Notes under the pieces: model-generated
What the model was told of the DNA's origin: nothing
Database searches by the model: none
The model's input: only the letters and a program-made list of their open reading frames with translations
Shown: one piece after another, positions 857 to 19,993 of the stretch
How positions within the stretch are numbered: the first letter of the stretch is position 1
Layout: each line of letters begins with the position of its first letter
Position numbers and translations under genes: made by a program
Assembly: GCA_031370005.1 (NCBI GenBank)
Contig: JANMPT010000110.1
Coordinates: 1 to 64,000, forward strand
Direction of reading: 5' to 3'
From: Bdellovibrionales bacterium
GTDB lineage: Bacteria; Bdellovibrionota; Bdellovibrionia; Bdellovibrionales; Bdellovibrionaceae
Length of the DNA stretch: 64,000 bases

Positions 857-1522
857 ATGAAAAAGACCCCTCAATTGCGAAACCTTCTTTTTTCTTATGA
901 GACAACACTTTCTGAGGAAGAGTTTCAAAGTTTTGAACGAGAGGTTAATCGTCTACTGAATCATTATTCAGAAATTTTAAATTCTTATCGTGCCGGGGCT
1001 GAGCGAGCGCAGGTGGCTCAGGCACTGATTGATGAACAAGTAGAAATGAATTCTCATATCAAAACTAGTTGCCAAAAAGGATGCGGAGCTTGTTGTCATC
1101 TTGAGGTCGAAATCACTGAAGATGACGCGGACTTGTTAGCATATTCTATTCGCAATCAAAACTTGGTAATTGATGAAAAGCGCCTCCAGGAGTTGGCACA
1201 AAGAACGCGTTTAGACAAAAAATGGTCAGAGGGAGCAGTGTCTTCTAACCGTTGTATTTTGCTAGGTGCTGATAATGCCTGTAGCAACTACGCAAATCGC
1301 CCTTCAGTTTGCCGGAAACACTCAGTTACAACTCCTGCCGCCAATTGCTCCACTCTGGGAGCCTCGCCGGTCCCACTGCTGATTCCTATGAACGAAATCA
1401 TTCTCAGTGCGGCCCTTAATCAGCCAGGAAATGGGTTTGGATCACTGCCGAAAATGCTCGAAGCCGCGCTAATAAGAATCCGCGAAGCGGGAAGCCCCGT
1501 GGAGAGTGCGGATCTATTTTAA
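857..1522 (+). CDS. YkgJ-family Cys-cluster (CxxxCxxCC) Fe-S/zinc-chelating protein
   Basis: [10 protein letters not shown]...CILL...[12 protein letters not shown] motif set. Confidence 0.85.
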
Positions 1523-2499
1523 CGATTCACGCTACTCATATCAGGGTAACGGCTTCCAGAGGTGACTCCTTTGGTAAACTCATGATTCAGCAGGGCTAGA
1601 TCTTTTTGCGTTAATTTAATTTCTGCAGCCTTGGCGTTTTCTTCAAGGCGAGATCGAGACTTTGTGCCGGGGATTGGAACAATATCGTCGCCTTGTGCAA
1701 GGACCCAAGCTAGCGCAAGCTGTGCAGTGGTGATTTTTTTTTCATGGGCAAGATCCTCGATATGCAAAACAAGCTGCATGTTTTTTTTAAAGTTTTCACC
1801 CTGAAAACGGGGATTGTTTTTGCGATAGTCGCCTTCAGGAATGTCTGCTTCAGTTTTAAATCGCCCAGTCAGAAAACCTCGACCTAGCGGGCTATAGGGG
1901 ACAAAGCCGATGCCGAGCTCGCGCACAGTTTTAAGAAGCTCTTCTTCGGGCTCGCGACTCCACAGCGAATACTCTGTTTGGAGAGCAGTTATTGGGTGGA
2001 TTTTATGAGCTTTGCGAATGGTTGCCGGCGCGGCTTCAGAAAGACCAAGATAGCGAACTTTACCTTCTTTAACAAGTTCTGACATCGCTTGAACAGTTTC
2101 CTCGATGGGAGTATTTGGGTCCACGCGATGCTGATAATAAAGATCAATCTGGTTCACTTTGAGCCTTTTCAGAGAATCTTCGCAGCACTTTTTTACATAT
2201 TCTGGTTTACCATTAACTCCAAGAAATTTTCCGTCTGGCGAGCGCATATTCCCAAACTTCGTTGCAATTACGAATTGGTCACGTTTTCCTTCGATAGCTT
2301 TGGCGAGTAACATCTCATTGGTGAAAGGCCCATACATATCAGCAGTATCAAGGAAATTGATTCCCAAATCTAAAGCATGGTGGATGGTAGCAATGGATTC
2401 TGCTTCATCACGCCCAGCGTAGAAGTCGGACATTCCCATGCAGCCGAGTCCCATACGAGAAACCTGCAGACCTTGGCTTCCCAATTTTACTTTTTTCAT
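1519..2499 (-). CDS. aldo/keto reductase (AKR13-like)
   Basis: [40 protein letters not shown] overlap with upstream fusion gene. Confidence 0.95.
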
Positions 2500-5400
2500 T
2501 TGAAACTCCTTGTTTTTGAAAATGCTTTGATACGGTTAATGCCTCCATCAGGATGGATCATCACTCGAATCTGTGAAAATTTTGCTGATGTTTTAACATC
2601 GAAAATAATCTTATTGCCAGCATAGTTTTTGACATTAATTTTATCAACCAATCTTGTCCAACCACCGTCTTCAAGCCCTTGAATTGATACCTCAAAGGGA
2701 TTGTTATTCACAAAATAAGTAAAATCAAGTTCGAGTCGTGCGAGAGAGGATTGCTTGCCAAGAGCTATGATTACCTCCTCAAAGTGTTCTTTGGCACGAC
2801 TTCGTGCAGACTCCATTCCATCAAACATATGAAGAGGAGGAAAAGGTGAAATCACCTGGGCCGCAGGGCCATAGTGCTCATTTGTTGCGCTGACGATAGT
2901 TCCGCCAAAGGCCGAGCTTGCTAGGTCGACTTCAGATCCGGGTTTGAGGCTCTCCCAGTTTTTTTTGATATTGAATTCCGTGGCATCGTATTTCGGCGTC
3001 AAGGGACGAATTGTCTGTGGAATGACATCGGTAAAGACGATGCTCTTTGCTTGATCCGCTGGGAGGTATTTGGCCTTCTCCGCTGTGGGTAGAGTCTCGT
3101 CATATAGTCCAAGGCGTGACAGCCCGCCATCAGGATAGAGAGATACTTTTACTTGGCTAAAGACTGCTGTGCCAGTGGTTGTTTTTATCGCTTTAAAGGC
3201 ATGACCTTGTAGCGCTGTTTTATCAAGGATGTCCTGCCAATTTTTAGTTTCAGAATTAAGACCTTCGATGCGAAGAAATTGTGCTTGATTGCCAAGATGG
3301 TATTTTGTTGAGATTCCAATATAGTGGATGCTGCTGGGTTTTTTTAATTTAAAAATCAATTCATCACAGGGCTTTTGATTGTGACGAACGCTTTCCCAGC
3401 TATCCATGATTTTACCCTGACGCCCAAATAGGCCAGGGTTAAAAGCGGGCAAGTGAGGCGAGAGAAGATTTTCTGCTCTCGCAAAGAGTTGATTGGTCAC
3501 CTCAAGAATTTCACCACCCACGGCTAAATTATAAGAAGCTAAAGGATCCAGAGGCCCTTTTTCTTTAATTTCTTCAGGTAAATCAGGTTGAAAGGCGCCA
3601 AAGATCAGATCGCGGTAGCCAATATTGACCACCTCTTGCTGTGGAATTTTACCGTAGGCAAAGTTTTTCCTAAAAAAATTAGTATCTATGCCTTCCATTT
3701 GAAACTCTGCAAGAATGGTTTGAGCTACGTCTGCAATGAAAAAAACGCCGTTGAGTTCAGCATTGCAAAGAATAGTAAATCCCAAACCTGCAGAGGGGCC
3801 ATTAAAGCAATGTACGAACAAGCAACGGAAGCCATCGTTTGCACCTTGATGAATGGCAAGACGATTCGGTCCTGCTTCTGCGATAAAAATACCAAGGCCC
3901 ATTTTTGTTCCCATGAATTCTTTGCAGCCACGATCCGTACCAGAAAGCATTTGCACAGCAGTGTCATGAGAGATTGCTCCTGCTTCTTCCTGGATGTGGA
4001 AAGCTTTGGTCAGACTTCCGAGGAAACGTGACATGTCGGCGGCAGTTCCCATGGCCCCAGCGGCCAAGGCTGGAAACATCTTGCGAGTGCCGGGGATTTT
4101 CTCACCAGTGGCAAGATAGCCATGGGCATATTCAATATTTGGTAAAGTTTTTTGCTCAAAGGAAAAGTCTTTAAGATTCAATTGGTCTAAGAATGGTTTT
4201 ACAAGGGCTTGAATTGTTTTTTTCTCAAGACTTTCTAAAAGATGCTCAAGAACTAGATAGCCACCTCCAGAGTATTGGAATATTGTGCCAGGCTCATTGA
4301 TAACACCAACAGATGGCAGAAGTTCTCTGAGCTCTGGCATCACTTGATTGGCAGGTGTGCCAAGAACGTAGTGCATATTCAGTGCACTGTGATTCATTAA
4401 TTGCGCGAGAGTAACCTGATCGCCCCACTGAGGGTTTGCGAGATCTAAGGATTTGACACGATAGTGAGACGTGGTCCTGGCGAAGATTGAATTAACCGAA
4501 GAGGTCAGAGCAATATTGGCATTGCGAAAATATTCAATGGCAAAGCAAGTTGCCACAGTTTTACTGAGCGAGGCCATCTCAAACCACGTATGAGCAGTCG
4601 CATTTCCAAAAGCCAAGTTTTGCTGTGAGTTTGGGCCTGATGTAATACTCACTTGTGCTGCATTGACTTGGTGCTTGCGAAGTGCTGCATCAATATTTTC
4701 CTGCAGATAATTCAGAGGCTGAGCCTGAAATCGCTTTTGAGTGATTTCCCAGAGGGCCAGGCGGGCATTCTGAAGCTCTTGAGAGCTGTTATTTTCAATT
4801 CTTGCAGAGAGCGCGGCTTGAAGCTCTTTGCCAGATTTACCTTGTGCAGAAATTAAAAATTTCATCCCAAATTTATCACGATAAAGCCTGCCGAGGCGGG
4901 CGAGTTCAGCTGTTAGTTGATTGTTAATAGTAGCGTCCTCTTTGAATACGAGGGCCTGCTCTTGTACAGCCATAGGGTCCAGAGTTTTTTTGTTTTCACC
5001 GATATCACCGTGGAAGCTTGCAGCGTCAAGCACATCGCTGAGCGTAAATTTTTTAATTATTTGCTCGGCTTGTTTTGTATCCATAATTATATTTTTGGCC
5101 ATGAGGCTTGCAAATGAAAGACTTCCACAAATTGAGAAGTAGTAATTGAAGCGCGCAATCGGCGCTTTCATTTGATATTTTTTTGGCTCAATTGCAATGA
5201 TGGCTGCCCAAGGATTTTCATTGTTGCGGATAGAGTCTATTGTGAATGCTAAAAGCAACTCAGTAGCAAATTCAACAGGCTTATCGCTTGTCATTAAGAG
5301 AATCATTAAATTCAATGCAATTGGATACCATTTCTCAGTTCGCTCATCCCATTTTACTTGGACAATTTTTTTGGAATTCGACAAGTCTTTACGAATAAAA

Positions 5401-7199
5401 TGAAGTTCCTCATGGGCGATTCTTAGGAAGTCTTCTAGGGGAAAACGACCATGATGAAGCTCGTGCCAGACTTCCCAGCGGGAGCGCTCAGCAGTTGCTA
5501 AATCATCCATCACCCGAGCTGGAATGCCATCAATTAGAGTGGGCAAGGCCACGCAGCCATTCCCCGAAAGCCAATCCGTGAGGTATTGTAAAGATTGGAA
5601 AACATTATAACGAATTTCTTCTGGATCATTATTGGCGATATAAGTGGACTCTTTGATATCTGCCACTAGCAGAGAGCGCTGATAAAGAGGGTTGGAAGTA
5701 TCAAGCCCCACCAAGTCGGGACCATTGATAAAATTCATAATTTCTTGATGATATTTTTTATCTAAAAGAGAGGTTACTAGAGTTTCTAGTTTCGTTTTGT
5801 CAGAATTTTGGTGGAAGCTCCATGCTTCGACAAGTGCAAGGCCCAGGCGAATGAAGTCAGGATGGGCAACCCAAAAGCCGGAAAGGTTTCTTTTTAGTTG
5901 AGTAATTACGTCCTTGATAAATCCTTTCATTGTCACCTGAAAGGAAGCACTTGAAAGCTCAGAATCAATTGGTAGAATGCCATACATGCCACCAATTTTA
6001 ATTCCCCCACGAGAGCCGACCACCTCGGCAAGTAAGTCATGGGAGCCTTTAATATACTTTATGACGATATCAGGATCTGCCTTTACCGGTATGCGATAGT
6101 TTGCGTCTTCTTTAAAAAGACGCGCAGTGGAGCCCAGGTAGTCATGCCATCCAAGAGAGGCCCCCGCAAAGTAAGGGTAGAGCTCGTCCATAATTTCATT
6201 TACACGAAAAACTGCACGGGGATTTTCAAGTACGATCAGCAGACGTATAGAGCCTATCCTATATTCTGGATGCGCTTTGCAGATCATTTTTTCTGCGGTC
6301 TCTATCATAATACGGATGTAGCGGGCCTCTTCTTCGGTTTCGAGTTTTGGTACGTAAAAAGCCAAGGCTTCAATGTTTTGCCAACTTGCAAATAGATGAA
6401 GCGCGAAATCATAAAGATGAAGCGGCAAAGGATTGTTTCGATAGAAAAGGAAAGGACATGGCAGAGCTATCCCTGGAAAGCGCTTTACCGGAAGGGCGAG
6501 GTGATCTTTTTCAAGTTTGTATTCTTTTTTGGTTTTTGGATCGGAGAAAGCGATTTTTTTTTCAAAACATTGAGTGAGGTTTTCACCGGCAGAAATAAGG
6601 TCTTGCCGTAAAGGAGTTTTTGAGTCCTCATCATCGGCTCCCCACTTTGGAGAGCTTGTGTGGGTATTAAGCAATTCTGCGATGATGGCTGGCTCATCTT
6701 TGAGTTTGCGATGATAAGCATTCATTGCATTGATAGAGAGTTTGGCATCATCCGGTGGGCCAAAGAGAGTGACATGATAGCCTTGCAAGAAGTCTGGAAT
6801 CTTTGCAATAGGGGCCCCGCCGCCGGCTTTGCAATAGAGCATGTTCTTAGGGCCAATCACAATTCTTCCAGCAGCATCCTCCTGGCCGATGAGTGTCTGG
6901 TAGCGCTCATCTAGGAAGTCAACTCCAAGAGATTTATTTAGTTCGTAGCATGCTCGAGTTCTTTGATCGATAAATTTTCGGTCGGCGATTCGCTGCTCAA
7001 GTACTTTGTTTAATTCGTTTTTAACGGCATCATAAAGATCACACAAAAACTGCAAGGATTCAGTGGTCTCTAGTCCGCCTAAATTGCCAATATGAATGAG
7101 GTCTGGAATCTCAGGAGCGGGTTTTCCCTCCGACATCAGCTGTTTGAGAAAACTCGCAGAGATATAGTCTTGGTAGTAAGGAATTTCTTTTTGAGTCAT
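2496..7199 (-). CDS. multifunctional fusion: malate synthase (aa ~40-655) + OHCU decarboxylase (~684-826) + beta-lactamase-fold serine hydrolase (~830-1165) + allantoicase, two repeats (~1222-1562)
   Basis: Malate synthase: [52 protein letters not shown] decarboxylase: [26 protein letters not shown]. Serine hydrolase: SLSK, YSG, HQG. Allantoicase: MDSWES / [19 protein letters not shown] / HPDGGINRI. Confidence 0.88.
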
Positions 7200-7220: not shown

Positions 7221-7544
7221 CTAACTTCCTTTGTAGGTTGAATATCCAAATGGGTTTAGTAAAAGGGGGACGTGATACTTACGCCCAATGTCGACAACTT
7301 TAAAAACCACCTGTACATTCATGAAAAAAAAATCTCGTCCCTTTTTTTTGAAATATTCTTCGATTTCAAAAATGATTTGATAGGTGCCTGGTGCCTTTTC
7401 ACAATCAAAAATGAACCGGCCATCGGCATTGGTATTTCCCTTGGCGAGATCTCTCCACGTATTGCCATCTTTTTTTAAAAGTTTCACCAAGACGGATTCG
7501 GCAGGGGAGCCAAGGCTTGTATCTAAGATGTGGGTGCTTATCAT
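7221..7544 (-). CDS. uraH: 5-hydroxyisourate hydrolase (transthyretin-like)
   Basis: ISTHILDTS, TNADGR, YHVPLLLNPFGYSTYKGS. Confidence 0.95.
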   Translation of the reverse strand: MISTHILDTSLGSPAESVLVKLLKKDGNTWRDLAKGNTNADGRFIFDCEKAPGTYQIIFEIEEYFKKKGRDFFFMNVQVVFKVVDIGRKYHVPLLLNPFGYSTYKGS

Positions 7545-7558
7545 TTTGTTTCCTTCAA

Positions 7559-9190
7559 TTATTGCGTTTGTTTTGTCTTAAACTCAAATACCAAGTTCAG
7601 CTTGCCATTTGCCGCCACATCAACCTCTTTGGTTTGAGTCCCAAAGATCTCATGCCATAGTTCGAGGCTATAATGTCCTGGGGGGAGGTTCTTAATGCTG
7701 AACTGTCCCTTATCGTCAGTGATGCTGTAGTATGGATTGTCCATCACGGCAATGTAAGCGCTCATCCAAGGATGTACGCTGCATTTTGTCTGCACAAAAA
7801 TTTCAGGTTTATCAAAGATCTTTGTGATGCGGTCGTTTTTATTAGGCATAGCTATGTTGAAGATTTCATTATTTTTGGTGATAGATCGAACATTATGAAA
7901 AAGTGCATCGCTATTTACAAACTCTACTTTTTGGCCTACACGGCTGGCGCTAATTCTTGGCTCATACAAACAACCAATCTGATCAATAATCACAGGCTCA
8001 GTGGGAACATCTGTAAAGTGTTTCCCTTCAAGGCCTTTTGAGACGCGCACAAGAGCATTCTTCAGCAGTCCATTGTTGACGATAAGCTCATTGGAGTAGG
8101 CATCTCCTTTGTAGTGTGTCGCGCAGGCAAAGGGTAAAAGAAGTTTTTCTGCTTGAGGCACTGGGCCTTCAAATTTTACAATTCCGTTCACTTCGCTAAC
8201 TGTGCCCACCGCATCAGTGGAAGCGGGGATAATGGGCTTTGGCGTTTCAAGTTGAGTTTCCTGAGTCACCGCTGAATTGACCACATTTTCACGAGTAAAG
8301 ATCATCACGCCTAAAATCAAGAAAATACCAATGGCGGCAAAGACTTTGGAGCGAGTTGGATTCTTAATGCGAACCACAAAGAACTCGCGAATAGCAGCCC
8401 CCGCAGCGCTTATCAACAGCAGGATCAACCAATTCCACCGATTTCCATAAGTGGAGGAAAAGTGATTGCTTAGCATGATGAAGATAACAGGTAAGGTGAA
8501 ATAGGTATTGTGCGTGGATCTGTTCTTGGCGTTTTTTGCCCAGTCTTGATTAAGGGCCTCGCCTTTTTTTGCTGCTTCCACCATTTTAACTTGGCGAGGA
8601 ATGATTCGCAAAAAAACATTGGCTGTCATCCAAGTTCCAAGCATTGCACCGATATGCATGTAAGCTGCCCGGCCACTTAAGGTGTGACAAAGAAAGTAGG
8701 ACATTCCGGCAAACCAGAGCAGGGTCAGTGCGTGACCAATGAGGGGCGTATCTTTTGTTAGTTTTGTCTCCCAAAGGTAGTCATAAAAAATCCAAGAGAC
8801 AATAATTGAGCCTACACCGATTCCCACTGCTTGCCAGTACGTAACACCTGAGACTGAAGAGTCTAATAAAAAGGTTCCACCGCCAGTATAGAAGATCGCA
8901 AGCAGCAAGAAGGTTCCACTCATCCAAGTCCAATAGGACTCCCATTTAAACCAGTGAAGCTGCTCTGGGACTTTTATCGGGCCCATTTGCAATTTTTCGA
9001 CATGATAAAAGCCGCCACCATGAACCATCCAAAGATCACCCACATGGCCTGGTTTTGTAGAACTGGAGTTAAATTCAAAAGTCCGATCCAGCCACATAAA
9101 GAAAATTGAGGCTCCAATCCAAGCTATGGCAACAGTGATATGGAGCCAACGAACCAGCAGGAGTATCCACTCATATATTTCTTGATTCAC
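7559..9190 (-). CDS. puuD: PuuD-family integral-membrane urate hydroxylase/oxidase with C-terminal cupredoxin-like + carboxypeptidase-regulatory-like domain
   Basis: RWLHI..AIAWIGAS, LWMVHGGGFY, LHWFKWESYWTWMSG, RSTHNTYFTLPV, SNH; C-terminus has HNV...CSVHPWM and no CxxCH. Confidence 0.9.
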   Translation of the reverse strand: MNQEIYEWILLLVRWLHITVAIAWIGASIFFMWLDRTFEFNSSSTKPGHVGDLWMVHGGGFYHVEKLQMGPIKVPEQLHWFKWESYWTWMSGTFLLLAIFYTGGGTFLLDSSVSGVTYWQAVGIGVGSIIVSWIFYDYLWETKLTKDTPLIGHALTLLWFAGMSYFLCHTLSGRAAYMHIGAMLGTWMTANVFLRIIPRQVKMVEAAKKGEALNQDWAKNAKNRSTHNTYFTLPVIFIMLSNHFSSTYGNRWNWLILLLISAAGAAIREFFVVRIKNPTRSKVFAAIGIFLILGVMIFTRENVVNSAVTQETQLETPKPIIPASTDAVGTVSEVNGIVKFEGPVPQAEKLLLPFACATHYKGDAYSNELIVNNGLLKNALVRVSKGLEGKHFTDVPTEPVIIDQIGCLYEPRISASRVGQKVEFVNSDALFHNVRSITKNNEIFNIAMPNKNDRITKIFDKPEIFVQTKCSVHPWMSAYIAVMDNPYYSITDDKGQFSIKNLPPGHYSLELWHEIFGTQTKEVDVAANGKLNLVFEFKTKQTQ

Positions 9191-9709: not shown

Positions 9710-10468
9710 TCAAACAGCTGGTTCTTTTTGCATCGACTGATTCCAGACTTGAAAATAGATCATTGTCCAAAATAATATTCCCGAGGTAAGCACTGGAATT
9801 AAAAAGGCTCCGTGTCCAAAGCGTCCAAAGGCAAAACCACCAACGACTGATCCGAACCCAAAGAAAAAAATAATCCCCACTCTCATCAAACTTGCTTTTT
9901 TTTCGTTCTCTACATGATCATTTAGTTTACGGTGATTGAAAAGACGGACAAGGCCGATCCCAAGATCTGTCGTTATTCCAGTCAAATGTGTGGTGCGAAT
10001 GACAGATTTAGAAACTGTGGTAATTGTACCATTTTGAATCCCACATATAAAACAGAGTAAAATTAGCAAGGTATAATCCTGTGAGGACTCCAGTGGCTCA
10101 CCAAAGCGGCCCAGACGGCCAAGCATTCCGGCTATCGCCACAAATAAAGTAAGAAAAAAAATAATACCGAAGGTGATGTAGTATTTGGGTTTTATATGGA
10201 GCTTTAGACGAATATCTACAAGCTGACCACTTAGCATCGCGCCGAGAAGAAAAAATAAAGGCACGACAAGCATTCCTAAAGCATGCCGCGGCTCCTCTTT
10301 GCTTAAATCATAGCCGAAGAAGGTGGCAAAGCCAGTTATATGAGAAACAAAACGATGGCAGGCCATAAATCCACCAATATTTATAAGACCAGCCTGAAAT
10401 GCCATGAGCATCCAGATAGAGATATTACTTTTTGTATAATGGGAAATAGATGCATTACCGTAGAGCAT
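9710..10468 (-). CDS. YoaK/DUF1275 family membrane protein
   Basis: FVSHITG, GIQNG, RTTHLTGITTDLG; start reassigned to ATG at 10468. Confidence 0.9.
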   Translation of the reverse strand: MLYGNASISHYTKSNISIWMLMAFQAGLINIGGFMACHRFVSHITGFATFFGYDLSKEEPRHALGMLVVPLFFLLGAMLSGQLVDIRLKLHIKPKYYITFGIIFFLTLFVAIAGMLGRLGRFGEPLESSQDYTLLILLCFICGIQNGTITTVSKSVIRTTHLTGITTDLGIGLVRLFNHRKLNDHVENEKKASLMRVGIIFFFGFGSVVGGFAFGRFGHGAFLIPVLTSGILFWTMIYFQVWNQSMQKEPAV

Positions 10469-10547
10469 GGTTATACCTTTAATATAAATCATACCCGGAT
10501 TTATATTAAAGGCGCAATCGGTTGTATGGGCTGACCAGACCTTTAGT

Positions 10548-11525
10548 TCAGAGGGTCTCCGATTCTGGAATGAAAAAGTCACTTCGTCGACCTTCGACTC
10601 TTTCTTTTCTTATATCTGCATTGGGTCCGAAGGGGTGGCCGCCAAAGCCATTTCGCATGACCGCGATGGCCTTGGCCCACTCTTGATTTTTGTCTCGTGA
10701 AGCAAAAAGCTGCATGACGGCCAAACTGATTATAGGTATGGGAACTTCCATATGCAGAGCATCTGAGATCAACCAGTTGACCTCGCCGGTATCCTCCACA
10801 TAAGCAGGTATGCCCTGCTGAGTTTTTGCCCAGCCCTCGCCCAACAATTGAATCAGCCAGGATCTGATGACTGAGCCATGATTCCAACAATTTAAAATTT
10901 CTTGTATTGGCAGTTGATCCTGACCCCGGAACTTTTCAAGAAGATTCACGCCTTCACCTATAGCTTGTAGCATTCCAAATTCGATTCCGTTATGTACAAG
11001 TTTTGTAAAATGGCCTGATCCCGTAGATCCAGTATAGACATAGCCACCGGTGACGGCCAAGTCGCGAAGTAGGGGCTCTATCAGTTGTACGGCCGCCAGG
11101 GGGCCACCGACCATAAAACATGCGCCTTCGCGGGCTCCAGAGACTCCGCCGCTTGTTCCCAAATCTACGAAATTAATGCCGAATGCTTTGAGTCGAGTCG
11201 CCCGGGACACAGAGTCCCCCCAGTAGGAGTTTCCACCATCTACTATCACGTCACCTGCTTCAAGTAATGGGGTCAGTTGCTCAATCAACTGGTCAACAGC
11301 CTTGCCGGCAGGGATGTATAGAAAAAGGACGCGTGGTGGCTTTAGGTTTTGGCAGAGCTCTCCAAGGCTTTTTCTCTCCTGAAGGCCAGCTTGAGTCAGT
11401 TCCGCAGAGATTCCGTCTAGGGTAAATCCAGTCACCTTCCAGTTTTTTCTCATCGCTTGTAGTGCCAACCCACCGCCCATGCGACCGAGTCCGACAACAC
11501 CAAATTCAGTTAATGTTTTTGTCAT
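10548..11525 (-). CDS. gnd: 6-phosphogluconate dehydrogenase, decarboxylating (short YqeC/GntZ type)
   Basis: GLGRMG, DGGNS, GTSGG, GSGHFTKLVHNGIEFG, DTGE, RNGFGGH. Confidence 0.92.
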   Translation of the reverse strand: MTKTLTEFGVVGLGRMGGGLALQAMRKNWKVTGFTLDGISAELTQAGLQERKSLGELCQNLKPPRVLFLYIPAGKAVDQLIEQLTPLLEAGDVIVDGGNSYWGDSVSRATRLKAFGINFVDLGTSGGVSGAREGACFMVGGPLAAVQLIEPLLRDLAVTGGYVYTGSTGSGHFTKLVHNGIEFGMLQAIGEGVNLLEKFRGQDQLPIQEILNCWNHGSVIRSWLIQLLGEGWAKTQQGIPAYVEDTGEVNWLISDALHMEVPIPIISLAVMQLFASRDKNQEWAKAIAVMRNGFGGHPFGPNADIRKERVEGRRSDFFIPESETL

Positions 11526-11592: not shown

Positions 11593-11979
11593 ATGAAGAC
11601 AGGTATTGGTTCTAAAGTATGGGCTATTGCTGAAGGTTATATTCCTACATATAGTCAGGGGCCTCAGCCTGAGATGTTGAGTCATGAAACAGCCTGTATT
11701 TTGAATACAAATGACGAAGAGGCTCAGATCGAATTGACTTTGTATTTTAAGGATAGCGAGCCTATAGGCCCCTATAAAATATCGGTACCTGCGCGACGTA
11801 CTTTGCATCTGCGTTTTAATGATCTTAAGGAGCCAGCGGTGGTTCCCTTGGGAACAGATTATTCCAGTGTTTTTACTTCGAATATCCCTGTTGTAATTCA
11901 ACACACGAGATTGGATTCTCGCCAACCTGCCAATGCGCTGCTCAGTACGATCGCCTACTCGGTATCCCATTCTAGTTAG
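11593..11979 (+). CDS. Anabaena sensory rhodopsin transducer (ASRT)-family protein
   Basis: IG.K.WAIAEGYIP, SHETACILN, VPARRTLH, PVVIQHTRLDSRQ. Confidence 0.9.
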   Translation: MKTGIGSKVWAIAEGYIPTYSQGPQPEMLSHETACILNTNDEEAQIELTLYFKDSEPIGPYKISVPARRTLHLRFNDLKEPAVVPLGTDYSSVFTSNIPVVIQHTRLDSRQPANALLSTIAYSVSHSS

Positions 11980-12773
11980 CCCTGTTTCAGAAAACTGGAG
12001 TAAAGCGTCATGCCGCCGTCGATAAAAAGACTTATCCCTGTGATGTAGCGAGCCTCATCAGAAACTAAATAAGAAACAGCCCCTGCCACTTCTTCAGGTG
12101 TTCCTATGCGCTGTTCTGGAATTTTATCCAGAACCACTTTTTTTATAGCTGGCTTATGGATCCATGAATCATTGATAGGTGTTGAAATGGCACCTGGAGC
12201 TATGTTGTTTACACGGATATTCAGTGAAGCAAGTTCTAGGGCCATGGTTTTGGTGAGCATCATAATCCCGCTTTTTGAAGCGCAATAGTGAGCATAGCCA
12301 CCCCAGGGAATTGTCTCGTGGACCGAGGAAATATTAATGATCACACCTGTTTTTCTCTTTGCCATCATCTGAGCTGCAGCGCGTGCGCAGAGGAAGCTGC
12401 CGCGGAGATTGGTATTGATGACAAGATCCCAATCCTTGGTTTTCATTTTTAAAATGGGAGCTTTGCTTTCAAGTCCAGCGTTGTTTACTAGAATATCTAA
12501 ACGTTTTTGGTCACTAGTAATTTTTTGAAACATTTTTTTAATGTCTGACTCTTTGCTAATATCAGCACGAATAGGAATTCCTAAGCCACCTTTGGCTTGA
12601 ATTTGTGCGGCGAGAGATTTTGCCTTACTTGCTTGCCCGCGATAGTTGATATAAACGATGGCGCCTTCAGAGGCCAGGCGTTGTGCAATGGCTTTGCCTA
12701 TTCCGGAGCTGGCTCCGGTGACTAAGGCTACTCGATTTGTCAAAGAACCTAGAGTAGAATTTTGCATTTTCAT
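11976..12773 (-). CDS. glucose 1-dehydrogenase-like SDR oxidoreductase
   Basis: TGASSGIG, NNAG, SSVHETIPW, YCASK, PGAISTPIN. Confidence 0.88.
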   Translation of the reverse strand: MKMQNSTLGSLTNRVALVTGASSGIGKAIAQRLASEGAIVYINYRGQASKAKSLAAQIQAKGGLGIPIRADISKESDIKKMFQKITSDQKRLDILVNNAGLESKAPILKMKTKDWDLVINTNLRGSFLCARAAAQMMAKRKTGVIINISSVHETIPWGGYAHYCASKSGIMMLTKTMALELASLNIRVNNIAPGAISTPINDSWIHKPAIKKVVLDKIPEQRIGTPEEVAGAVSYLVSDEARYITGISLFIDGGMTLYSSFLKQG

Positions 12774-12788
12774 AAATTGAACTTCCTT

Positions 12789-14363
12789 TTATCGAATAAG
12801 TTTGAACCACAAACGGGCAGCGTTTTCAAATCGCGGACTTAATTTTGTTTTGACGTATGCATCTCCGGCCTTAGGAATTGCCTCAGCCTGCGTGGGATAA
12901 GAGTGAATTACTTTTTCTAGATCTGCGAGCCCTAAACCCATCACCATTGCGAGAGAGACCTCATTGATCATTTCACCAGCATGGCGGGCCACGATTGTGG
13001 CTCCTAAAATTTGATCGGTTCCCTCGCGAACATGTACTTTGACAAAGCCAGTTTCCTCTCCATCAATGATGGAACGATCTATTTGATGCATTAAAATTGT
13101 ATAGGATTTAATTGGCAGATCTTTGGCTCGAGCATCTCGAACATAAACGCCGACGTGTGCCACCTCGGGATCTGTATATGTGCACCACGGAATTACTAAT
13201 TTAGAAATTCTTTTATGTTTCCGAAAAAGAGCATTTTGAATAACAATTCGCGCAGCAGCCGATGCTGCGTGCGTGTACATAAAATCGGAGCAAACATCGC
13301 CGGCGGCAAAAACGCGGGGATTTGTAGTCTGAAGAAAGTCGTTTACCATGATGCCATTTTTCAAATTAAAGTGAATATTGGCATTTTCCAAGCCCAGGCC
13401 TTCGACATTGCGGGTCCGGCCGACTCCGGTTAAAATTTCATCGACAGCAACAACTTCTGTATTATTTTGATTGCTAAGTTCAACAAGCTTTTCTTTTCCG
13501 TGAAGAGAGATTTTACTAACTGTCGTATTGAGTCGAAGTTGCATTCCATCTTTTGCAAAAGAATCAGACAGCAACTGTGCGGCATCACGCTCTTCATTGG
13601 GAAGAAACAGAGTTTTATTTTGAACGACTATGACTTTCGCGCCCAAGCGCTGAAAAGCTTGAGCGAACTCGCAGCCTAAAGGGCCGCCGCCAATGACCAT
13701 TAAGCGCTTTGGTAGTTCGTTGAGGTTAAAAACAGTTTCATTCGTTATATAACCAGACTCCGCAAGCCCCGGTATATTTGGCGTCGCTGGTCGAGAACCA
13801 GTGGCAACCAAGGCTTTTTTAAATCGAAGAATCAGATGATTAACTTTTATTGTTTTTTCATCCTTGAAAGTCGCTTCGCCAAAAAATACATCAACGCCAA
13901 GGTCACGAAACCTTTCTGCTGAGTCATGGCGGCCAATGCGTGCGCGGATTTTGCGAATGCGCTCCATGACCTTAGGGAAATCCACTTCGAAATTCTCTAA
14001 TGGCAGGTTGCCTTGAACGCCGTAGCTAGCGGCATAGCGAATGTCTGAACAAACTCTCCCGGCACGGGCTAGGGTCTTAGATGGGATACAGGCGACATTG
14101 AGACAATTTCCGCCCAGAAAGCTGCGCTCAATTAATGCAACTTTTGCACCGAATCGGGCGGCCTCTGCGGCGGCCACGAGTCCCGCCGTCCCGCCGCCAA
14201 TGATAACCAAATTATAACACTTGGCTGGGATTGGATTGACCCAATCCTCGGGGTGGACTTCTTTAATTAAATTTTGATTAAAGAGGTCATCGAATAAAGG
14301 TGGCTCCTGAGGCAGTTCCCAGTGAAAGTAAGCTTTCTTCATGAGCTTTTGCCTTCGAGCCAT
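12789..14363 (-). CDS. FAD-dependent pyridine nucleotide-disulfide oxidoreductase (mercuric reductase/LpdA-like)
   Basis: GGGTAG, GGNCLNVACIPSK redox disulfide, GGGPLG, C-terminal HSYPTQAE; lacks MerA C-terminal CC; start may be 14342. Confidence 0.9.
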   Translation of the reverse strand: MARRQKLMKKAYFHWELPQEPPLFDDLFNQNLIKEVHPEDWVNPIPAKCYNLVIIGGGTAGLVAAAEAARFGAKVALIERSFLGGNCLNVACIPSKTLARAGRVCSDIRYAASYGVQGNLPLENFEVDFPKVMERIRKIRARIGRHDSAERFRDLGVDVFFGEATFKDEKTIKVNHLILRFKKALVATGSRPATPNIPGLAESGYITNETVFNLNELPKRLMVIGGGPLGCEFAQAFQRLGAKVIVVQNKTLFLPNEERDAAQLLSDSFAKDGMQLRLNTTVSKISLHGKEKLVELSNQNNTEVVAVDEILTGVGRTRNVEGLGLENANIHFNLKNGIMVNDFLQTTNPRVFAAGDVCSDFMYTHAASAAARIVIQNALFRKHKRISKLVIPWCTYTDPEVAHVGVYVRDARAKDLPIKSYTILMHQIDRSIIDGEETGFVKVHVREGTDQILGATIVARHAGEMINEVSLAMVMGLGLADLEKVIHSYPTQAEAIPKAGDAYVKTKLSPRFENAARLWFKLIR

Positions 14364-15628
14364 CCGCCACTAAAGCCGGCGCGGGTAAGGCCTCTTTGAA
14401 GAATTCGAGATTTTTTCATTAGATTCCAAACTAGCCCGCTTTGAGCGTTTTCAATCATCATAATAATGATCCCGACATCCATGGCGTAGAAACGTTCTAG
14501 AAACCAAACAGGATTAATGCTCATATTGAAGCTGCACTTAAAACCATATTTGCCTCGCAATTGGGGATAAGTTTGGTGCAGGTGGTTGATAGCGTCGAAG
14601 GCGCTGTCGGGATCAAAAGGTAAGCTTGCGACACAGGCCCAAGGCGCAATCGTGCCATCATCTGGCCCATAAGGAACACCCCGCGCGGAGTAGCCAAAAA
14701 ATACGACCTCATCCCCTGATCGAAACTGTTTGTAATAGTCTGGCCCGGCGTCTGCAGTGATGCCCCAGCAGTTTTTTCCGTAGCCAATAAAATTTTTTGG
14801 ATTACGAATGCAATAGGCGCGTTGCACTTGAATGGCACGACGGGTGTTCTCAAAGTAGTCGATTTTTTTTGCGTGCATAAATTTGTCGCGGATATCACGG
14901 AAGTCGATCCAAGCATGCGAAAAAAGATGAATAAAAAATGGACCTGCATACAAGAAGTCGACATCGTAGATGTTTTCCCATTGGTAGGTCGATGACCAGG
15001 CTTCAAAGCTTTTTTTAGACACGGCAAAGTTATCCGATCCGAGCGCCAAACAATAAAGCAATAAAGCTTCACTGTAGCCTTCCCAATCATAGTGAATAAA
15101 ACTGGACTCAGGACGCCAGCCGTGTGAAAGAGCAGCTCGCTCATCGAGGGCCCAGCGCCAGTCTACCCGATTCAGTATGCCAGAGGCGAGTTTTTGAATT
15201 TCTACTTCTGATTCATTTTTTTGCTTAAAATACTCAGCAGTGCAGATGACTCCTGCCAATAAAAAACCTGTATCAATAATTGAAAGTTCACTTTTCCAGG
15301 TTCGGCACCCGGTTTTCATATCTAAGAAATGATAGTAAAAACCTTTGTACCCAGTTGCATTAAGTTTTTCACTTTGCTCGCTTTCGAAGAAAAATTTCAA
15401 AGTCACAAGGGTGCGTTTGACGGCCTCTTCGCGGCTAAGTAGTTTTTTTTCAACTGCGACAGGGTAGCTGCTCAGAGCAAAACCAACTCCGGTGATACTG
15501 GCGGGCGCATTATTTTCATCGGTATCTGGGATTAAACCATTATTAGGATTATATAAATCCAAAAAGTATTGAAACGATTTTTTTTGCAATTCATTTAAAA
15601 AATTAGTTTGTTCAGTTGCATTTCTCAT
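14339..15628 (-). CDS. 'glucoamylase-family' (DUF3131/GH144-like) glycoside hydrolase
   Basis: ASITGVGFAL, GFYYHFLD, ELSIIDT, GWRPE, GYSEA, FIHLFSHAWIDFR, WGITA, DDGTIAP. Confidence 0.88.
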   Translation of the reverse strand: MRNATEQTNFLNELQKKSFQYFLDLYNPNNGLIPDTDENNAPASITGVGFALSSYPVAVEKKLLSREEAVKRTLVTLKFFFESEQSEKLNATGYKGFYYHFLDMKTGCRTWKSELSIIDTGFLLAGVICTAEYFKQKNESEVEIQKLASGILNRVDWRWALDERAALSHGWRPESSFIHYDWEGYSEALLLYCLALGSDNFAVSKKSFEAWSSTYQWENIYDVDFLYAGPFFIHLFSHAWIDFRDIRDKFMHAKKIDYFENTRRAIQVQRAYCIRNPKNFIGYGKNCWGITADAGPDYYKQFRSGDEVVFFGYSARGVPYGPDDGTIAPWACVASLPFDPDSAFDAINHLHQTYPQLRGKYGFKCSFNMSINPVWFLERFYAMDVGIIIMMIENAQSGLVWNLMKKSRILQRGLTRAGFSGGWLEGKSS

Positions 15629-17097
15629 TGTTGCTTTGCTCGACGTCTAGAAAAAACCAATGTGACTGCGGCCACGCCAAAAGGCGGCAGAATAAGATCA
15701 AAGGATAAGTCACCTTTAAAAAACTTGTACGGCTGAGTTTTCACCAAAAGTTCGGAGATTTTTTTTAGTTTTTCAACTTGCTTCGGCGTGGGATATTCGG
15801 GACATCCTAGCTTCCGCCAGGCTCCTGCGGCATTGGCATTTTTTTCGTCGATGCGCCTAAGTTTTGTTTCTTTGATTTTTGGAACGCCTGAGAACTTAAA
15901 ACACACTTTTTCAGTTTGAAGAGGGTGTTTTGGTAGAGCGAAGTTAACAGCTAGGACTGTCATGGATTGCTTATCCTGAACGGCCCACGCGCTAACTGTG
16001 GTTGAAGATCCTACAAGTGGGATAATCTGATTTCCTAAAGAGTGTAAGATCTCAAAGGCTCGATAGGCAGGCTTTGCAATGCCGTGAATGTTCATCAAGC
16101 CAAATCCGCCATGGAAGGGCGTTGAAGGAAAATAATTTTCCTCAAAAATATCGCTGAAAGTCCAATAACTATAGGCCTTCACCAAGCCATGCGCTTCCAT
16201 TATAGTTTTGGTGATAAAGGCCGCTGCATAAGGCTCATCGTGGAGACTATCTCGGGGGTTAGAGGAAGTACTCCATTCGGTATAGTAAACACTCAGCGGT
16301 GCCGCCTGTTGTGCCGCGAGGAAAGCCTGGTCTTTTAGCACGCTTGGAGTACTTAGTGAAAGCTGTGTTATTGTATCGTCGCCCTCTTTACCAAAGGCAT
16401 CAGTGGGGTAGTGGTGCGTAGAAATAAAATCAACAGGCGCTTTCTCATTTTTACAGAACGTCAAAAATTCAGGAATCCAAGCATTTGCTGCCGTTGCAGG
16501 GCCTCCGACTTGTAGTTTTGGGTGAATACTTTTGATTGCCCGAGCTGTGGCCGCGTAAAAATGGAAATATTCGATTTGGCTGGCTGTCCAGAAAGCCTTC
16601 AGATTAGGCTCATTCCATACTTCAAAGAACCAAGATGAAACTTCTTTAATTCCGTATCTCTTAACCAATTGAGAGATTAGTTTTTTAATGAGCAAATTCC
16701 AATCGTCAATAGACTTTGGCGGCGTTATATTGCCTTTATAATGAAAGACGGTGTCACCGCCTGAAGATAAAGTGCTTGGCATAAAGCTAAGTTCGACAAA
16801 AGGTTTCATGCCAATAGAAATCAAAAAATCAATGATCTGATTTAAATTGTGAAATGAGAAAATAAATTTATTTTGATTGCAAATCAAAGTCCCCATGTCA
16901 TCAGAAAGAATTCCGTGAAAACGCACATATTTAAAACCCAATTCACGGTGAGCTCTTGCTAGCTGCTCTTGCCAATCGGATCTAAGTGCTAAGGTTGCAT
17001 GGCCGCTTCCAATTGTGTGTTCCCAAAAATGAGAAAAAGGCTGACTCTTTGAGGACTCTATCTGACCTTTAAAGTGAATCATTAAATGCTCCAGCAA
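15625..17097 (-). CDS. GH39 beta-xylosidase-family glycoside hydrolase
   Basis: YVRFHGI, PFVELSFMP, FEVWNEPN (acid/base), YTEW (nucleophile), YWTFSDIFEE. Confidence 0.93.
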   Translation of the reverse strand: MLEHLMIHFKGQIESSKSQPFSHFWEHTIGSGHATLALRSDWQEQLARAHRELGFKYVRFHGILSDDMGTLICNQNKFIFSFHNLNQIIDFLISIGMKPFVELSFMPSTLSSGGDTVFHYKGNITPPKSIDDWNLLIKKLISQLVKRYGIKEVSSWFFEVWNEPNLKAFWTASQIEYFHFYAATARAIKSIHPKLQVGGPATAANAWIPEFLTFCKNEKAPVDFISTHHYPTDAFGKEGDDTITQLSLSTPSVLKDQAFLAAQQAAPLSVYYTEWSTSSNPRDSLHDEPYAAAFITKTIMEAHGLVKAYSYWTFSDIFEENYFPSTPFHGGFGLMNIHGIAKPAYRAFEILHSLGNQIIPLVGSSTTVSAWAVQDKQSMTVLAVNFALPKHPLQTEKVCFKFSGVPKIKETKLRRIDEKNANAAGAWRKLGCPEYPTPKQVEKLKKISELLVKTQPYKFFKGDLSFDLILPPFGVAAVTLVFSRRRAKQQ

Positions 17098-17447
17098 GAA
17101 CGAATACCTATTTCTTTAACTTTGCCACATTCAAAATTAGCAGAGGCCGACAAGACTGTATTTTATTTTTTTAGTCACAACATCCTGAGATACCGACGCC
17201 TATATGATGAAATAATCCAGCATGTTTTTTTTGGCATGAACGAAAGATTATTTATTAGTGTAATTTGTCGCCATATCGCCCTTGAAATAGGCAGATTACT
17301 TGTAGGTATATTTTGCAAATGATGGTCATGAGTTTGTTTAAATAGTTGGAAATTTTCGGTTTTGTCATTTTTTCATCGATTTAGCATATTGTGTCATTCA
17401 TTGTTTTAGGTTATAACCTTCTTTCTGCTTAACGAACGAAAAAATTT

Positions 17448-18032
17448 ATGGGGAGGCTTAGCACTGTGATTGATTCAACAGGGATAAATCCGAACGCTAT
17501 TGAAGAAGAATTGATGGAAGAGCTCGATGAGGAACTTGATGGGGACCTCGATGGGGACCTCGATGGGGACGAAGAAGCCGTAGACCAATTTGGTGACGAA
17601 ACTCTTGCTGCTGAGGCCCTTGAAGGTAATTTAAGTTTGAATTCTTTGAACCAGTTTGGTGAAGAAGAAGACATGAACTTAGATGAAATCGATAATATCC
17701 TTGAACTTACCGACGACAAATATCCAAAGTTTACGCTGGCGAAAAATAAAGCTCGTTTTTTGCGTATGGTGAGCTGGTACCGCGCAAAAGAAGAGTGGAT
17801 CGAAGTTGCTCCCTTGAGTGGTGTTACGAAGCTCTTCAAGCAACAAACTAAAGAGTTGGAGGGCATCCGTTCTTCTAAGCTCGATTATGAAATGGAGCTT
17901 GAGACTGGAACTCTGACGCCTTCCCAAAGGTCTTACCGCCGTGACGAATTAAAGATGTGCCGTGTTCAAGAAAAAATGGCAGTTCATTTAATCTCTAAGT
18001 TACAAGTTAAGATCAAAAGCGGCCGTAGGTAA
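17448..18032 (+). CDS. hypothetical protein, highly acidic N-terminal half and basic helical C-terminal half
   Basis: 194-aa ORF, codon choice suggestive of a well-expressed gene, long AT-rich upstream region. Confidence 0.8.
   Translation: MGRLSTVIDSTGINPNAIEEELMEELDEELDGDLDGDLDGDEEAVDQFGDETLAAEALEGNLSLNSLNQFGEEEDMNLDEIDNILELTDDKYPKFTLAKNKARFLRMVSWYRAKEEWIEVAPLSGVTKLFKQQTKELEGIRSSKLDYEMELETGTLTPSQRSYRRDELKMCRVQEKMAVHLISKLQVKIKSGRR
17538..17570 (+). repeat. in-frame 12-bp tandem repeat (GATGGGGACCTC x2.75, DGDL)
   Basis: Read directly from the sequence. Confidence 0.9.
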
Positions 18033-18037
18033 TTAGC

Positions 18038-18766
18038 TCACTTCACGGCGTTGATCAAAGCGCCACCTTTAAGCATATCAACTATTTTATCTCGCAAGTT
18101 CAAGGTCACCGCTGGGCATCCCCAGCTGCGGCCTTGAATGAGGTCTGCTTCTGCGACGTAGCTTGCCCCATGGATTACAATCGCGCGGCTGCGAGCATTT
18201 GAGTTCGTCGATGATTTGCCATCAAGTCGTAAGGACAAGCCATGGTCACCGTAGTAGGTTTCAGCCGTCATATAGAAACCTAAAGAACTTGCGTTGGAAC
18301 CAGCGGCATTACTGAATTTTTTAGCATAACCGTCATGGTTGCTATCAGAGCCCTTTCCGTGAGCCACATGAATGGCTTGAACAGCTCCGGTTTTCATATC
18401 AACAATATAAAAACGTTTTTCTTTCGAGTTCTGAGCAAAGTTAATCACAGCAATATAATTTTTATTATCAAGACTGGATTTGTTTTGCTCGAAGTACACA
18501 ACGGTGTCAGCCAAGGCTTTACTTGGAACAATTTTATTTGGATCAAGGTAGTCATATTTCGCAAGAATGGCTTCGCGCTCTGTCTGGCTGGGCTCTGGTA
18601 AGGTCGGTGCCGTCGTGTTCCTGTTCTCTTTGTCGGGGAGTCCGTTCGTTGGTTGTTCTCGGGAAGGATCATCGTTTAACCTCGGAGTATCAAAGGTGTT
18701 GCCACATGCTGTAAGGCTGAACATCGTACAAAAAACCATAACTTCCTTTGATAATTTTCGTAACAT
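18038..18766 (-). CDS. murein L,D-transpeptidase catalytic domain lipoprotein (YkuD_2)
   Basis: Lipobox LTAC, VAHGKGS, SSLGFY, IVIHGASY, GRSWGCPA. Confidence 0.92.
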   Translation of the reverse strand: MLRKLSKEVMVFCTMFSLTACGNTFDTPRLNDDPSREQPTNGLPDKENRNTTAPTLPEPSQTEREAILAKYDYLDPNKIVPSKALADTVVYFEQNKSSLDNKNYIAVINFAQNSKEKRFYIVDMKTGAVQAIHVAHGKGSDSNHDGYAKKFSNAAGSNASSLGFYMTAETYYGDHGLSLRLDGKSSTNSNARSRAIVIHGASYVAEADLIQGRSWGCPAVTLNLRDKIVDMLKGGALINAVK

Positions 18767-18973
18767 GCAGTCTCCAGTGAATGAATTTAGTGCTTTAAAA
18801 AAGGCTACAAGAGAGCGGCAAGACAGAGGCGAGAATTGCTGACTAAACAGTCAAAATTAAGACTTAAGGCGGAGAGAAAGTACGATCTAAGTCCCATGAA
18901 TAAACGAATAGGTAGCTAGCCTTGAAGGTGTGCCCATGATAAGATCCCTTATGTATTCAGAGTTTGAAACATT

Positions 18974-19993
18974 ATGAAAAAAATCTGGCTTGTCTTTTTA
19001 TTGCTGTTGTTTTCACTCAGGGCTTTGGCTGACAAATCCTTGGCCTTCGATAATGATTGGGCAAGAGGCTATGTTCAATCCATTGATAGTGCCAAGACAC
19101 TGACTGTGATTACTGCCTATTCTGAATTTCGTTTGGGTGAAATACTTGTGGTGCAAAGCCATGACCAAACACAGGATATTATTGGTTTTGTGCAAATTGT
19201 AAGCATCGAGACTCGTGGGGATGGTCAGTATTTTTTAAAAGTCCGTCTGGTTCGACACTCAAAATTTTCAATGATTCAACTTGGTGATGTTCTCTACAAG
19301 ATGGACTTTAACACCTTCCACCAGGAATATCGTGGCACAACAGAACTGATCATGAGAAACGAGGACCTGGGGTCTTCTTCTAGTTATAAATCCCTTATTT
19401 TTATGGGGCTCAGCGCGGGAGAGACTGCCCAAACTTTGCGTGACAATGAGTTTCTAATAAATATCCTTGGTTATCTGGACTATGGCGTAACCTCAAGATT
19501 CACTCTTGGGACCCTTTTGCCAGCGGATTTGTTTTCAGCTCCCAATATTCATGGAAAATACAGAGTCTATTTGTCGGATTCCAGCGTAGTTTCATTGGGG
19601 CTTAATTACTTTCAGTCTCCAGACACTTCCAGCGGCATTATAAATATGAGCTTATACTGGGATTCGGTTTCTTCTGAAAGTGTAATTGCCCATACCAATC
19701 TTTCTTTGGCTCTAGCGACTTTTGATAAGGCCAAAAATCTGACTGCACTTAAAGGGGCTGGAACAAGTTCTCTACAATCAGGTTATGAATTTATTATGGA
19801 TGACTGGAATCGCGTTCTTGTGGGCCCAAGTTATAACTTTGAGAATAAATCCGTCGGTGGCTATCTGTCTTATATTTGGATTTGGGATAGCTTTCATCTT
19901 CTTGCGGGTGTTAGCACAACAGATATTTCTAATGCGATCTATAATATCGAAAAAGGTTATTACTTCAATATAGATATGTATTGGAGATTCTGA
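18974..19993 (+). CDS. hypothetical exported / outer-membrane beta-barrel protein
   Basis: Signal peptide (ALA), amphipathic beta strands, C-terminal YWRF. Confidence 0.7.
   Translation: MKKIWLVFLLLLFSLRALADKSLAFDNDWARGYVQSIDSAKTLTVITAYSEFRLGEILVVQSHDQTQDIIGFVQIVSIETRGDGQYFLKVRLVRHSKFSMIQLGDVLYKMDFNTFHQEYRGTTELIMRNEDLGSSSSYKSLIFMGLSAGETAQTLRDNEFLINILGYLDYGVTSRFTLGTLLPADLFSAPNIHGKYRVYLSDSSVVSLGLNYFQSPDTSSGIINMSLYWDSVSSESVIAHTNLSLALATFDKAKNLTALKGAGTSSLQSGYEFIMDDWNRVLVGPSYNFENKSVGGYLSYIWIWDSFHLLAGVSTTDISNAIYNIEKGYYFNIDMYWRF

Follow-up and report, generated by a model that had tools for sequence, protein, structure and literature searches.

A single gene of a Bdellovibrionales bacterium joins four enzyme modules of purine breakdown in one polypeptide, and two of these modules probably perform known steps of the pathway with enzyme types not yet recognized for them. 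The gene lies in the window analyzed here, a stretch of 64,000 nucleotides that comprises positions 1 to 64,000 of contig JANMPT010000110.1 (assembly GCA_031370005.1). On the minus strand, positions 2496-7199 of the window form one open reading frame (ORF) of 1567 aa with no interruption. As a whole, we think it slightly better than an even bet that this fusion would carry the urate pathway from 2-oxo-4-hydroxy-4-carboxy-5-ureidoimidazoline (OHCU) to glyoxylate by means of a serine-type allantoinase and a malate-synthase-like (MS-like) lyase. The initial annotation of this DNA had described four unrelated folds in one uninterrupted chain, and a Pfam scan agrees with that description by placing five domains over their gathering scores, as was expected. 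The modules are the following.

5175..7199, minus strand (residues 1-675): MS-like module of the GWHD clade, from Pfam MS_TIM-barrel and MS_C; candidate ureidoglycolate lyase or purine-dedicated malate synthase
4725..5174, minus strand (residues 676-825): OHCU decarboxylase module, from Pfam and Protein Data Bank (PDB) matches
3555..4724, minus strand (residues 826-1215): beta-lactamase-fold serine hydrolase module, from Pfam and an AlphaFold2 (AF2) model; candidate non-homologous allantoinase
2499..3554, minus strand (residues 1216-1567): allantoicase module with two repeats, from Pfam and PDB entry 1sg3

In the mechanism that we propose, the fusion would act as a cytoplasmic enzyme that is co-transcribed with the urate oxidase PuuD and 5-hydroxyisourate (HIU) hydrolase. 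The OHCU decarboxylase module would yield (S)-allantoin, and the beta-lactamase-fold module would open its hydantoin ring via an acyl-serine on S877, with the participation of K880 and Y976, to give allantoate; allantoinase chemistry would in this way be carried out on a new fold. The allantoicase module would convert allantoate to urea and (S)-ureidoglycolate, and the N-terminal MS-like module would act on this last intermediate, with cleavage of ureidoglycolate to glyoxylate and urea as the narrowly favored reaction. What was observed comprises the architecture and how widely it is conserved, the neighboring genes, the motifs kept, the folds, and the complementarity in gene content; the two new activities (allantoinase and lyase), along with any channeling between the modules, we infer.

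The five Pfam domains are PF01274 (MS_TIM-barrel, residues 253-456, 66.3 bits vs a gathering score of 26.4), PF20659 (MS_C, residues 527-646, 38 bits vs 23.1), PF09349 (OHCU_decarbox, residues 710-825, 63.9 bits vs 24, covering profile positions 40-155 of 155), PF00144 (Beta-lactamase, residues 833-1150, 84.9 bits), and PF03561 (Allantoicase, two stretches for the two repeats, 173.8 bits). The curated equivalog cut-offs of NCBIfam are missed by all four modules, and for this reason each of them is regarded as a divergent member of its family. Motifs that had been assigned to the last three modules are found, with FHGDIG at 729, ASLSK (the SxxK motif) at 876, and PDGG at both 1356 and 1550. For the OHCU decarboxylase module, PDB matches to 2q37, 5uou, and 3o7h were obtained at ~3-5e-8, and alignment with these solved enzymes shows that H730, E747, and R823 are kept, which we take to be the conserved functional His, Glu, and C-terminal Arg of OHCU decarboxylase. 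This module has HG for the usual HP and GKS for the usual GR(S/T), and it scores 68.7 bits with TIGR03180, below the cut-off of 139.4. The allantoicase module matches PDB 1sg3 at 5e-29 and is considered a divergent member because its 188.2 bits with TIGR02961 fall below the cut-off of 277.9.

The fusion gene is widely conserved in Bdellovibrio-like bacteria. Among the best 120 of 642 homologues, all 120 have the same five Pfam families in a full-length layout of 1500-1705 aa at 57-100% identity, which is the outcome that the four-fold description had called for. Named sources in this set are Bdellovibrio, Bacteriovorax, and Oligoflexia, and the proteins bear no annotation beyond "serine hydrolase" or "malate synthase". 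Sampling of 301 genomes across the phylum uncovered the fusion in 33 genomes from nine families, 30 with a single-piece match over ~1550 residues or more and three with a shortened or frameshifted match (G153, G057, and G107). The best 80 loci of the genome_contigs search include 69 that extend into the allantoicase part and 11 that stop at a contig end, and a protein atlas returned generic beta-lactamase and malate-synthase clusters only. Cultured carriers exist (Bdellovibrio sp. HCB337, Bdellovibrio sp. HCB2-146, and Peredibacter sp. HCB2-198), so both proposed activities are directly testable at the bench. Outside Bdellovibrionota, the fusion was found in metagenome-assembled genomes (MAGs) labeled Planctomycetota and, in one case, Chlamydiales. 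The earlier rationale of a predator digesting the nucleic acids of its prey fits Bdellovibrionota, but the fusion is not confined to them.

An artifact, either an assembly chimera or read-through of a decaying gene, has a negligible probability in our view. The window does stem from a metagenome assembly, and the G107 copy is frameshifted while the G153 and G057 copies are shortened. However, complete isolate chromosomes (Bdellovibrio sp. HCB337 and Peredibacter sp. HCB2-198) and hundreds of contigs show the identical architecture, an alignment of 60 homologues reveals lengthwise conservation of each of the four modules, and a second assembly bridges the junctions. Specifically, the three domain junctions (near nucleotides 5175, 4724, and 3555) are spanned with zero differences by one Logan contig of run X1; this check of the junctions came out cleanly, with the limit that it does not constitute independent evidence because X1 may be the source sample. 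Run X2 gave small pieces only, and no RNA data set was listed among the holders of this DNA. A chimera was rejected on the shared architecture in relatives, the lengthwise conservation, and the bridged junctions.

Opening of the allantoin ring, in place of an allantoinase, is the most likely role of the beta-lactamase-fold module, an assignment based on gene content, domain order, and chemistry by analogy. Its AF2 model (predicted local distance difference test, pLDDT, 94.5) has a beta-lactamase/DD-peptidase fold, with the esterase 7spn, LACTB, the R61 DD-peptidase, and class C enzymes as the top Foldseek matches (template modeling, TM, scores of 0.6-0.76 and 14-19% identity). The module has the fold and the Ser-Lys-Tyr core in common with class C beta-lactamases, the R61 enzyme, family VIII esterases such as 7spn, and LACTB, but differs from them in having YSG for YxN and HQG for KTG, in invariant His and Arg residues of its own, and in being an internal cytoplasmic domain. 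Residues invariant in all 45 aligned sequences are S877-x-x-K880, H937, H943-Y944, Y976-S-G-x-G, H1117, N1121, and R1125, and the third motif of the module is H1117-Q-G. The class C beta-lactamase model NF033085 gives 25.9 bits vs a cut-off of 415. Neither the AllB (amidohydrolase) nor the PuuE (polysaccharide-deacetylase) family appears among the Pfam or NCBIfam matches of the fusion; as judged from its sequence, the module is proposed to work like AllB or PuuE and not to belong to either family. Within the chain, it sits between the module that would make allantoin and the module that would use allantoate. It also recurs fused to allantoicase alone (~740 aa), including in eukaryote transcriptomes such as that of Biecheleria, and free-standing homologues of 400-450 aa with 35-43% identity are found in protists (Amorphochlora, Sphaeroforma, Prymnesium, and a dinoflagellate transcriptome).

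Two unrelated enzyme families are known to fill the allantoinase step, and both were sought with dedicated models: TIGR03178 for AllB/DAL1, a metal amidohydrolase, and TIGR03212 for PuuE, which is of the polysaccharide-deacetylase type. The source genome has a completeness of 99.8%, and its purine genes are those for xanthine dehydrogenase, PuuD, HIU hydrolase, and the fusion. A canonical allantoinase elsewhere in this genome was rejected, given that PuuE was not found there and that its sole AllB-like gene is a dihydroorotase (NF006559, 700 bits vs a cut-off of 482). Within the phylum sample, the 32 other fusion genomes were compared with 26 genomes that have a free-standing allantoicase. AllB over the cut-off is found in none of the 33 Bdellovibrionota fusion genomes (the source and the 32 others) vs 25 of the 26 genomes in the second group; in all 25 it lies within ~260 nt of the allantoicase gene, and a fragment occupies that position in the 26th genome. 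The five genomes of planctomycete-labeled fusion MAGs likewise yielded no AllB over the cut-off, and PuuE over the cut-off was found in none of 59 genomes. At the level of loci, AllB-like matches occur at 12 of 73 stand-alone MS-like loci vs one weak match (26% identity) in 98 fused loci, and the purine operons of stand-alone MS-like genes have a true AllB (548 bits). We place the serine hydrolase at the allantoinase step on the grounds that the presence of the module coincides exactly with the absence of AllB and PuuE, and the corresponding idea in the initial annotation thus gains indirect support.

Several observations weigh against a serine allantoinase. One genome, G270, has an AllB-OHCU-decarboxylase fusion (507 bits, 617 aa) in addition to a gene for a beta-lactamase-fold hydrolase joined to allantoicase (bla-allantoicase). 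Dihydroorotase is retained by every genome and could moonlight. The module has Gly in place of the Asn of the YxN motif, no serine hydrolase that opens allantoin is reported in the literature found, and the counts come from related genomes that are not independent samples, many of them MAGs. An alternative would be that the module was not an allantoinase and instead hydrolyzed another amide (for example, that of ureidoglycolate or ureidoglycine) or served as a scaffold, with allantoin opened by a dihydroorotase-like amidohydrolase or an unknown enzyme. We judge this unlikely. It would explain why AllB and the module occur together in G270, yet the two are mutually exclusive in 38 of the 39 module-carrying genomes examined. 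An AllB-like amidohydrolase of 205-286 bits is present in every fusion genome with a listed match, but an equivalog model clearly identifies the amidohydrolase of the source genome as a dihydroorotase. The step after allantoicase is likewise without a gene, which could speak for a role of the module there, but the AllA lyase is missing as well from genomes with AllB and allantoicase, which manage without the module. Additionally, the place of the module in the chain matches the reaction order.

The genome G270 (L033 1-16500; L216 6383-8236) holds an unfused version of the system. The order of its genes is PuuD, bla-allantoicase (772 aa, no OHCU module), a class V aminotransferase, a lone allantoicase repeat of 166 aa, MS-like (735 aa), and a second aminotransferase. 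A second MS-like copy is present (L034), and the AllB-OHCU decarboxylase fusion is encoded elsewhere in the genome.

As judged by sequence and tree, the MS-like module belongs to a separate clade that is tied to purine loci. Its AF2 model (pLDDT 93.0) has 3cuz, the Escherichia coli malate synthase A (MSA), as the best PDB match across the whole chain, with a TM score of 0.83 by target length. The four residues R240, E325, D353, and D566, which had been read from the start as retained catalytic residues, indeed fall, in alignment with 3cuz, on its catalytic Arg, its pair of Mg ligands, and its Asp base, and they are invariant in 25 of 25 family members; in E. coli numbering, we take the first three to be Arg166, Glu250, and Asp278. 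The accessible part of one study names Asp447, which is D566 here, as the base of E. coli malate synthase (PMC3112382). Despite the retained residues, the module scores 129.3 bits with the malate synthase A model TIGR01344 vs a cut-off of 594.5, and scores of 492-754 bits are reached by canonical MSAs from this phylum. At the position of canonical Arg276-Trp277, part of a GRWD motif that is found in 30 of 30 canonical enzymes, the module has GWHD (W351-H352), as do 14 of 14 clade members and 4 of 4 nearest relatives outside the clade; GWHD is found in none of the 30 canonical enzymes. Among the acetyl-CoA contacts listed in the accessible part of PMC3112382, Ile94, Thr95, Gly96, Met102, Met330, and Pro369 correspond here to Leu, Phe (Phe146), Gly, Leu (Met in most relatives), Met, and Pro. 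A quick tree, from which the protein P0417 was left out since its N-terminal part aligned poorly, sets the canonical enzymes apart from the MS-like group with a Shimodaira-Hasegawa-like approximate likelihood ratio (SH-aLRT) support of 100, a result that carries a long-branch warning.

Members of the MS-like clade have ~680 aa and also occur as free-standing genes, in Desulfogranum, Persicimonas, Bradymonadaceae, Myxococcales, and Mariniblastus. By tblastn, 21 of the 73 stand-alone MS-like metagenome loci carry other genes of the urate pathway. At seven loci (L155, L159, L164-L166, L171, and L148), these form a compact operon of allB, an allantoicase-OHCU decarboxylase fusion, HIU hydrolase, and the MS-like gene, with PuuD divergent upstream. 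At L122, a PuuE-like gene of the polysaccharide-deacetylase type is found instead, and at L141 there is a cofactor-free uricase. Two of the four nearest outsiders are MS-like-allantoicase fusions. Two unnamed metagenome proteins of ~1030 aa, P0419 and P0440, combine a GWHD MS-like module with allantoicase, and P0419 ends in AKL, which looks to us like a peroxisomal signal. In P0417 (1312 aa), the poorly aligned N-terminal part is followed by beta-lactamase and allantoicase domains.

For this module, ureidoglycolate lyase is narrowly favored over true malate synthase by analogy to a zebrafish protein. In the accessible part of the zebrafish study, an MS-like protein was proven to act as a ureidoglycolate lyase, lacks synthase activity, and cannot make malate; of its glyoxylate-site residues, two are changed, Arg276 among them (PMC10120013). 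The established lyase AllA was found in neither the source genome nor a set of 33 composed of G270 and the other 32 fusion genomes. A Pfam scan of the purine operons of stand-alone MS-like genes detected no AllA in 58 further ORFs; the scan covered 58 of 83 unassigned ORFs and left out nine ORFs of L185 (with the gene order of the G270 locus), six that were matched by xanthine dehydrogenase queries or one guanine deaminase, and ten of 90-134 aa, among which an AllA fragment could hide.

A number of results count against a lyase. AllA is also missing in 24 of 26 genomes that have AllB and allantoicase and no MS-like gene, so its absence is the norm in the phylum. In the module, Trp365 is kept as W443, Met330 as M405, and Pro369 as P447, and Gly96 is kept as well; according to the accessible part of PMC3112382, Met330, Trp365, Pro369, Gly96, and Asp447 serve acetyl-CoA chemistry in true synthases. 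No other malate synthase was found in 21 of the 33 fusion genomes, the source included. Urease was found neither in a set of 33 genomes nor in the source genome, and neither urea carboxylase nor glyoxylate carboligase over the cut-off was found in the source genome; without these three, the two-carbon unit may be what the cell gains, which favors a synthase. Isocitrate lyase has only a partial match of 54.7 bits, in a 309-aa frame of the source genome. Because several acetyl-CoA contacts are kept, the module is often the sole malate synthase homologue, no urease or carboligase was found, and absence of AllA is common, we hold the lyase only slightly above the synthase.

The initial annotation had proposed a chain from OHCU to malate; in such a chain, the N-terminal module would be a true malate synthase for purine-derived glyoxylate, and ureidoglycolate would be split by the allantoicase module or decay on its own. 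The urate-pathway part of that proposal has held up, and the identity of the malate synthase has become doubtful on account of the low score (129 vs 594.5 bits) and the GWHD clade. We regard a true synthase as possible and would put it well short of an even chance. None of the four catalytic residues (the Arg, the Asp base, and the two Mg ligands) varies, and the equivalents of Met330, Trp365, Pro369, and Gly96 are retained in an MSA-like fold that spans the whole chain, but Arg276-Trp277 is replaced and Thr95 has become Phe146. The source genome and 20 of the other 32 fusion genomes have no malate synthase homologue apart from the module, and with neither urease nor carboligase found, no obvious gain other than malate would result, but a normal MSA coexists with the fusion in the remaining 12 of 32. 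A precedent on the synthase side is the yeast malate synthase DAL7 in the allantoin cluster, as given in the accessible part of PMC13751858; on the other side, the other purine-linked MS-like group is the one proven to be a lyase without synthase activity in the accessible part of PMC10120013. The module may also have a double function as lyase and synthase. In its fullest form, this would combine a serine-hydrolase allantoinase of a third, non-homologous kind, also present in protists, with a malate synthase derivative that both splits ureidoglycolate and condenses the bound glyoxylate with acetyl-CoA, so that the chain would run from OHCU to malate and glyoxylate would never be freed; we consider this combination improbable.

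Relative to known systems, the pathway and the folds are familiar, and the two assignments of enzyme to reaction are probably new. Like the MS-like module, the zebrafish lyase (DrMSL/UGL, in the accessible part of PMC10120013) is derived from MSA, is linked to allantoicase and urate genes, and is changed at Arg276. In contrast, Arg276 is Trp here and Ile there, Trp365 is kept here and Met there, and several acetyl-CoA contacts are kept here whereas the acetyl-CoA site is not conserved in UGL. The UGL group in the accessible part of that report comprises eukaryotes only; the module of the fusion is bacterial, has ~680 aa with insertions, and is joined to three other enzymes. The hydrolase module shares its proposed reaction, pathway place, and purine-locus slot with AllB/DAL1 and PuuE and excludes them in gene content, but it has an unrelated fold and a candidate activity that would use S-x-x-K and Tyr instead of a metal center. 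Fusions that join neighboring pathway steps are also seen in the allantoicase-OHCU decarboxylase proteins (NF010371 type, ~520-540 aa) and the AllB-OHCU decarboxylase protein; such two-module fusions occur in the stand-alone MS-like operons and in G270, respectively, and consist of canonical families, whereas the present fusion has four modules in another order, two of them non-canonical. The architecture, first thought to be new, turns out to be common in databases; the literature found holds no paper on the four-module fusion, a beta-lactamase-fold allantoinase, or a bacterial MS-like lyase.

If the assignments are correct, a third, serine-based family of allantoinases would supply a step that is missing from the predicted metabolism of the fusion genomes, and perhaps also from that of the protists with free-standing homologues, and genes now annotated as "serine hydrolase" or "beta-lactamase" could be reannotated. 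In bacteria, the MS-like clade may correspond to the ureidoglycolate lyase of eukaryotes. MS-like genes in purine operons are named "malate synthase" and could be mistaken for evidence of the glyoxylate shunt.

A role of the fusion in the lower urate pathway, as had been assumed, is borne out by its position directly behind the genes for PuuD and HIU hydrolase, an order kept in nearly all relatives. Three genes border the fusion or its operon partners.

7559..9190, minus strand: PuuD-type membrane urate oxidase with a C-terminal blue-copper domain (Urate_ox_N, 355 bits); first gene of the presumed operon
7221..7544, minus strand: 5-hydroxyisourate hydrolase (TIGR02962, 120.9 bits, over the cut-off of 87.45); 21 nt upstream of the fusion
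1519..2499, minus strand: aldo/keto reductase (Aldo_ket_red, 274.8 bits); its start overlaps the stop of the fusion by 4 nt (ATGA)

The gap between PuuD and HIU hydrolase is 14 nt, and a scan for promoters and terminators yielded no informative signal. The order PuuD-HIU hydrolase-fusion was traced through 20 and 80 related loci, often with XdhABC adjacent. In 14 of the best 80 loci, mostly labeled Planctomycetota or Phycisphaerales, the surroundings are different, with the hydrolase gene divergent and XdhABC following. The aldo/keto reductase has no counterpart next to the fusion in 20 other loci; it was therefore rejected as a conserved partner and is considered specific to this lineage. The closest model, that for the methylglyoxal reductase YdjG, gives 190 bits, short of its cut-off, and the enzyme could reduce free glyoxylate.

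Described PuuD proteins carry a cytochrome c domain. The CxxCH heme motif is not present in the PuuD-type protein of this window (7559-9190); its C-terminal part matches the type 1 copper protein PDB 5fc9 at 1.7e-6 and has FHN and C-S-V-H-P-W-M motifs, and a carboxypeptidase-regulatory-like domain follows the blue-copper domain. Judged by these motifs, a blue-copper PuuD would mean a different electron outlet. Further upstream, the genes at 11976-19993 of the window look unrelated to the fusion and include a short-chain dehydrogenase, a pyridine-nucleotide disulfide oxidoreductase, a putative glucoamylase, a GH39 glycosidase, and a YkuD L,D-transpeptidase. Between these and PuuD lie a DUF1275 gene (9710-10582) and a 6-phosphogluconate-dehydrogenase-like gene (10548-11525), which share 35 nt.

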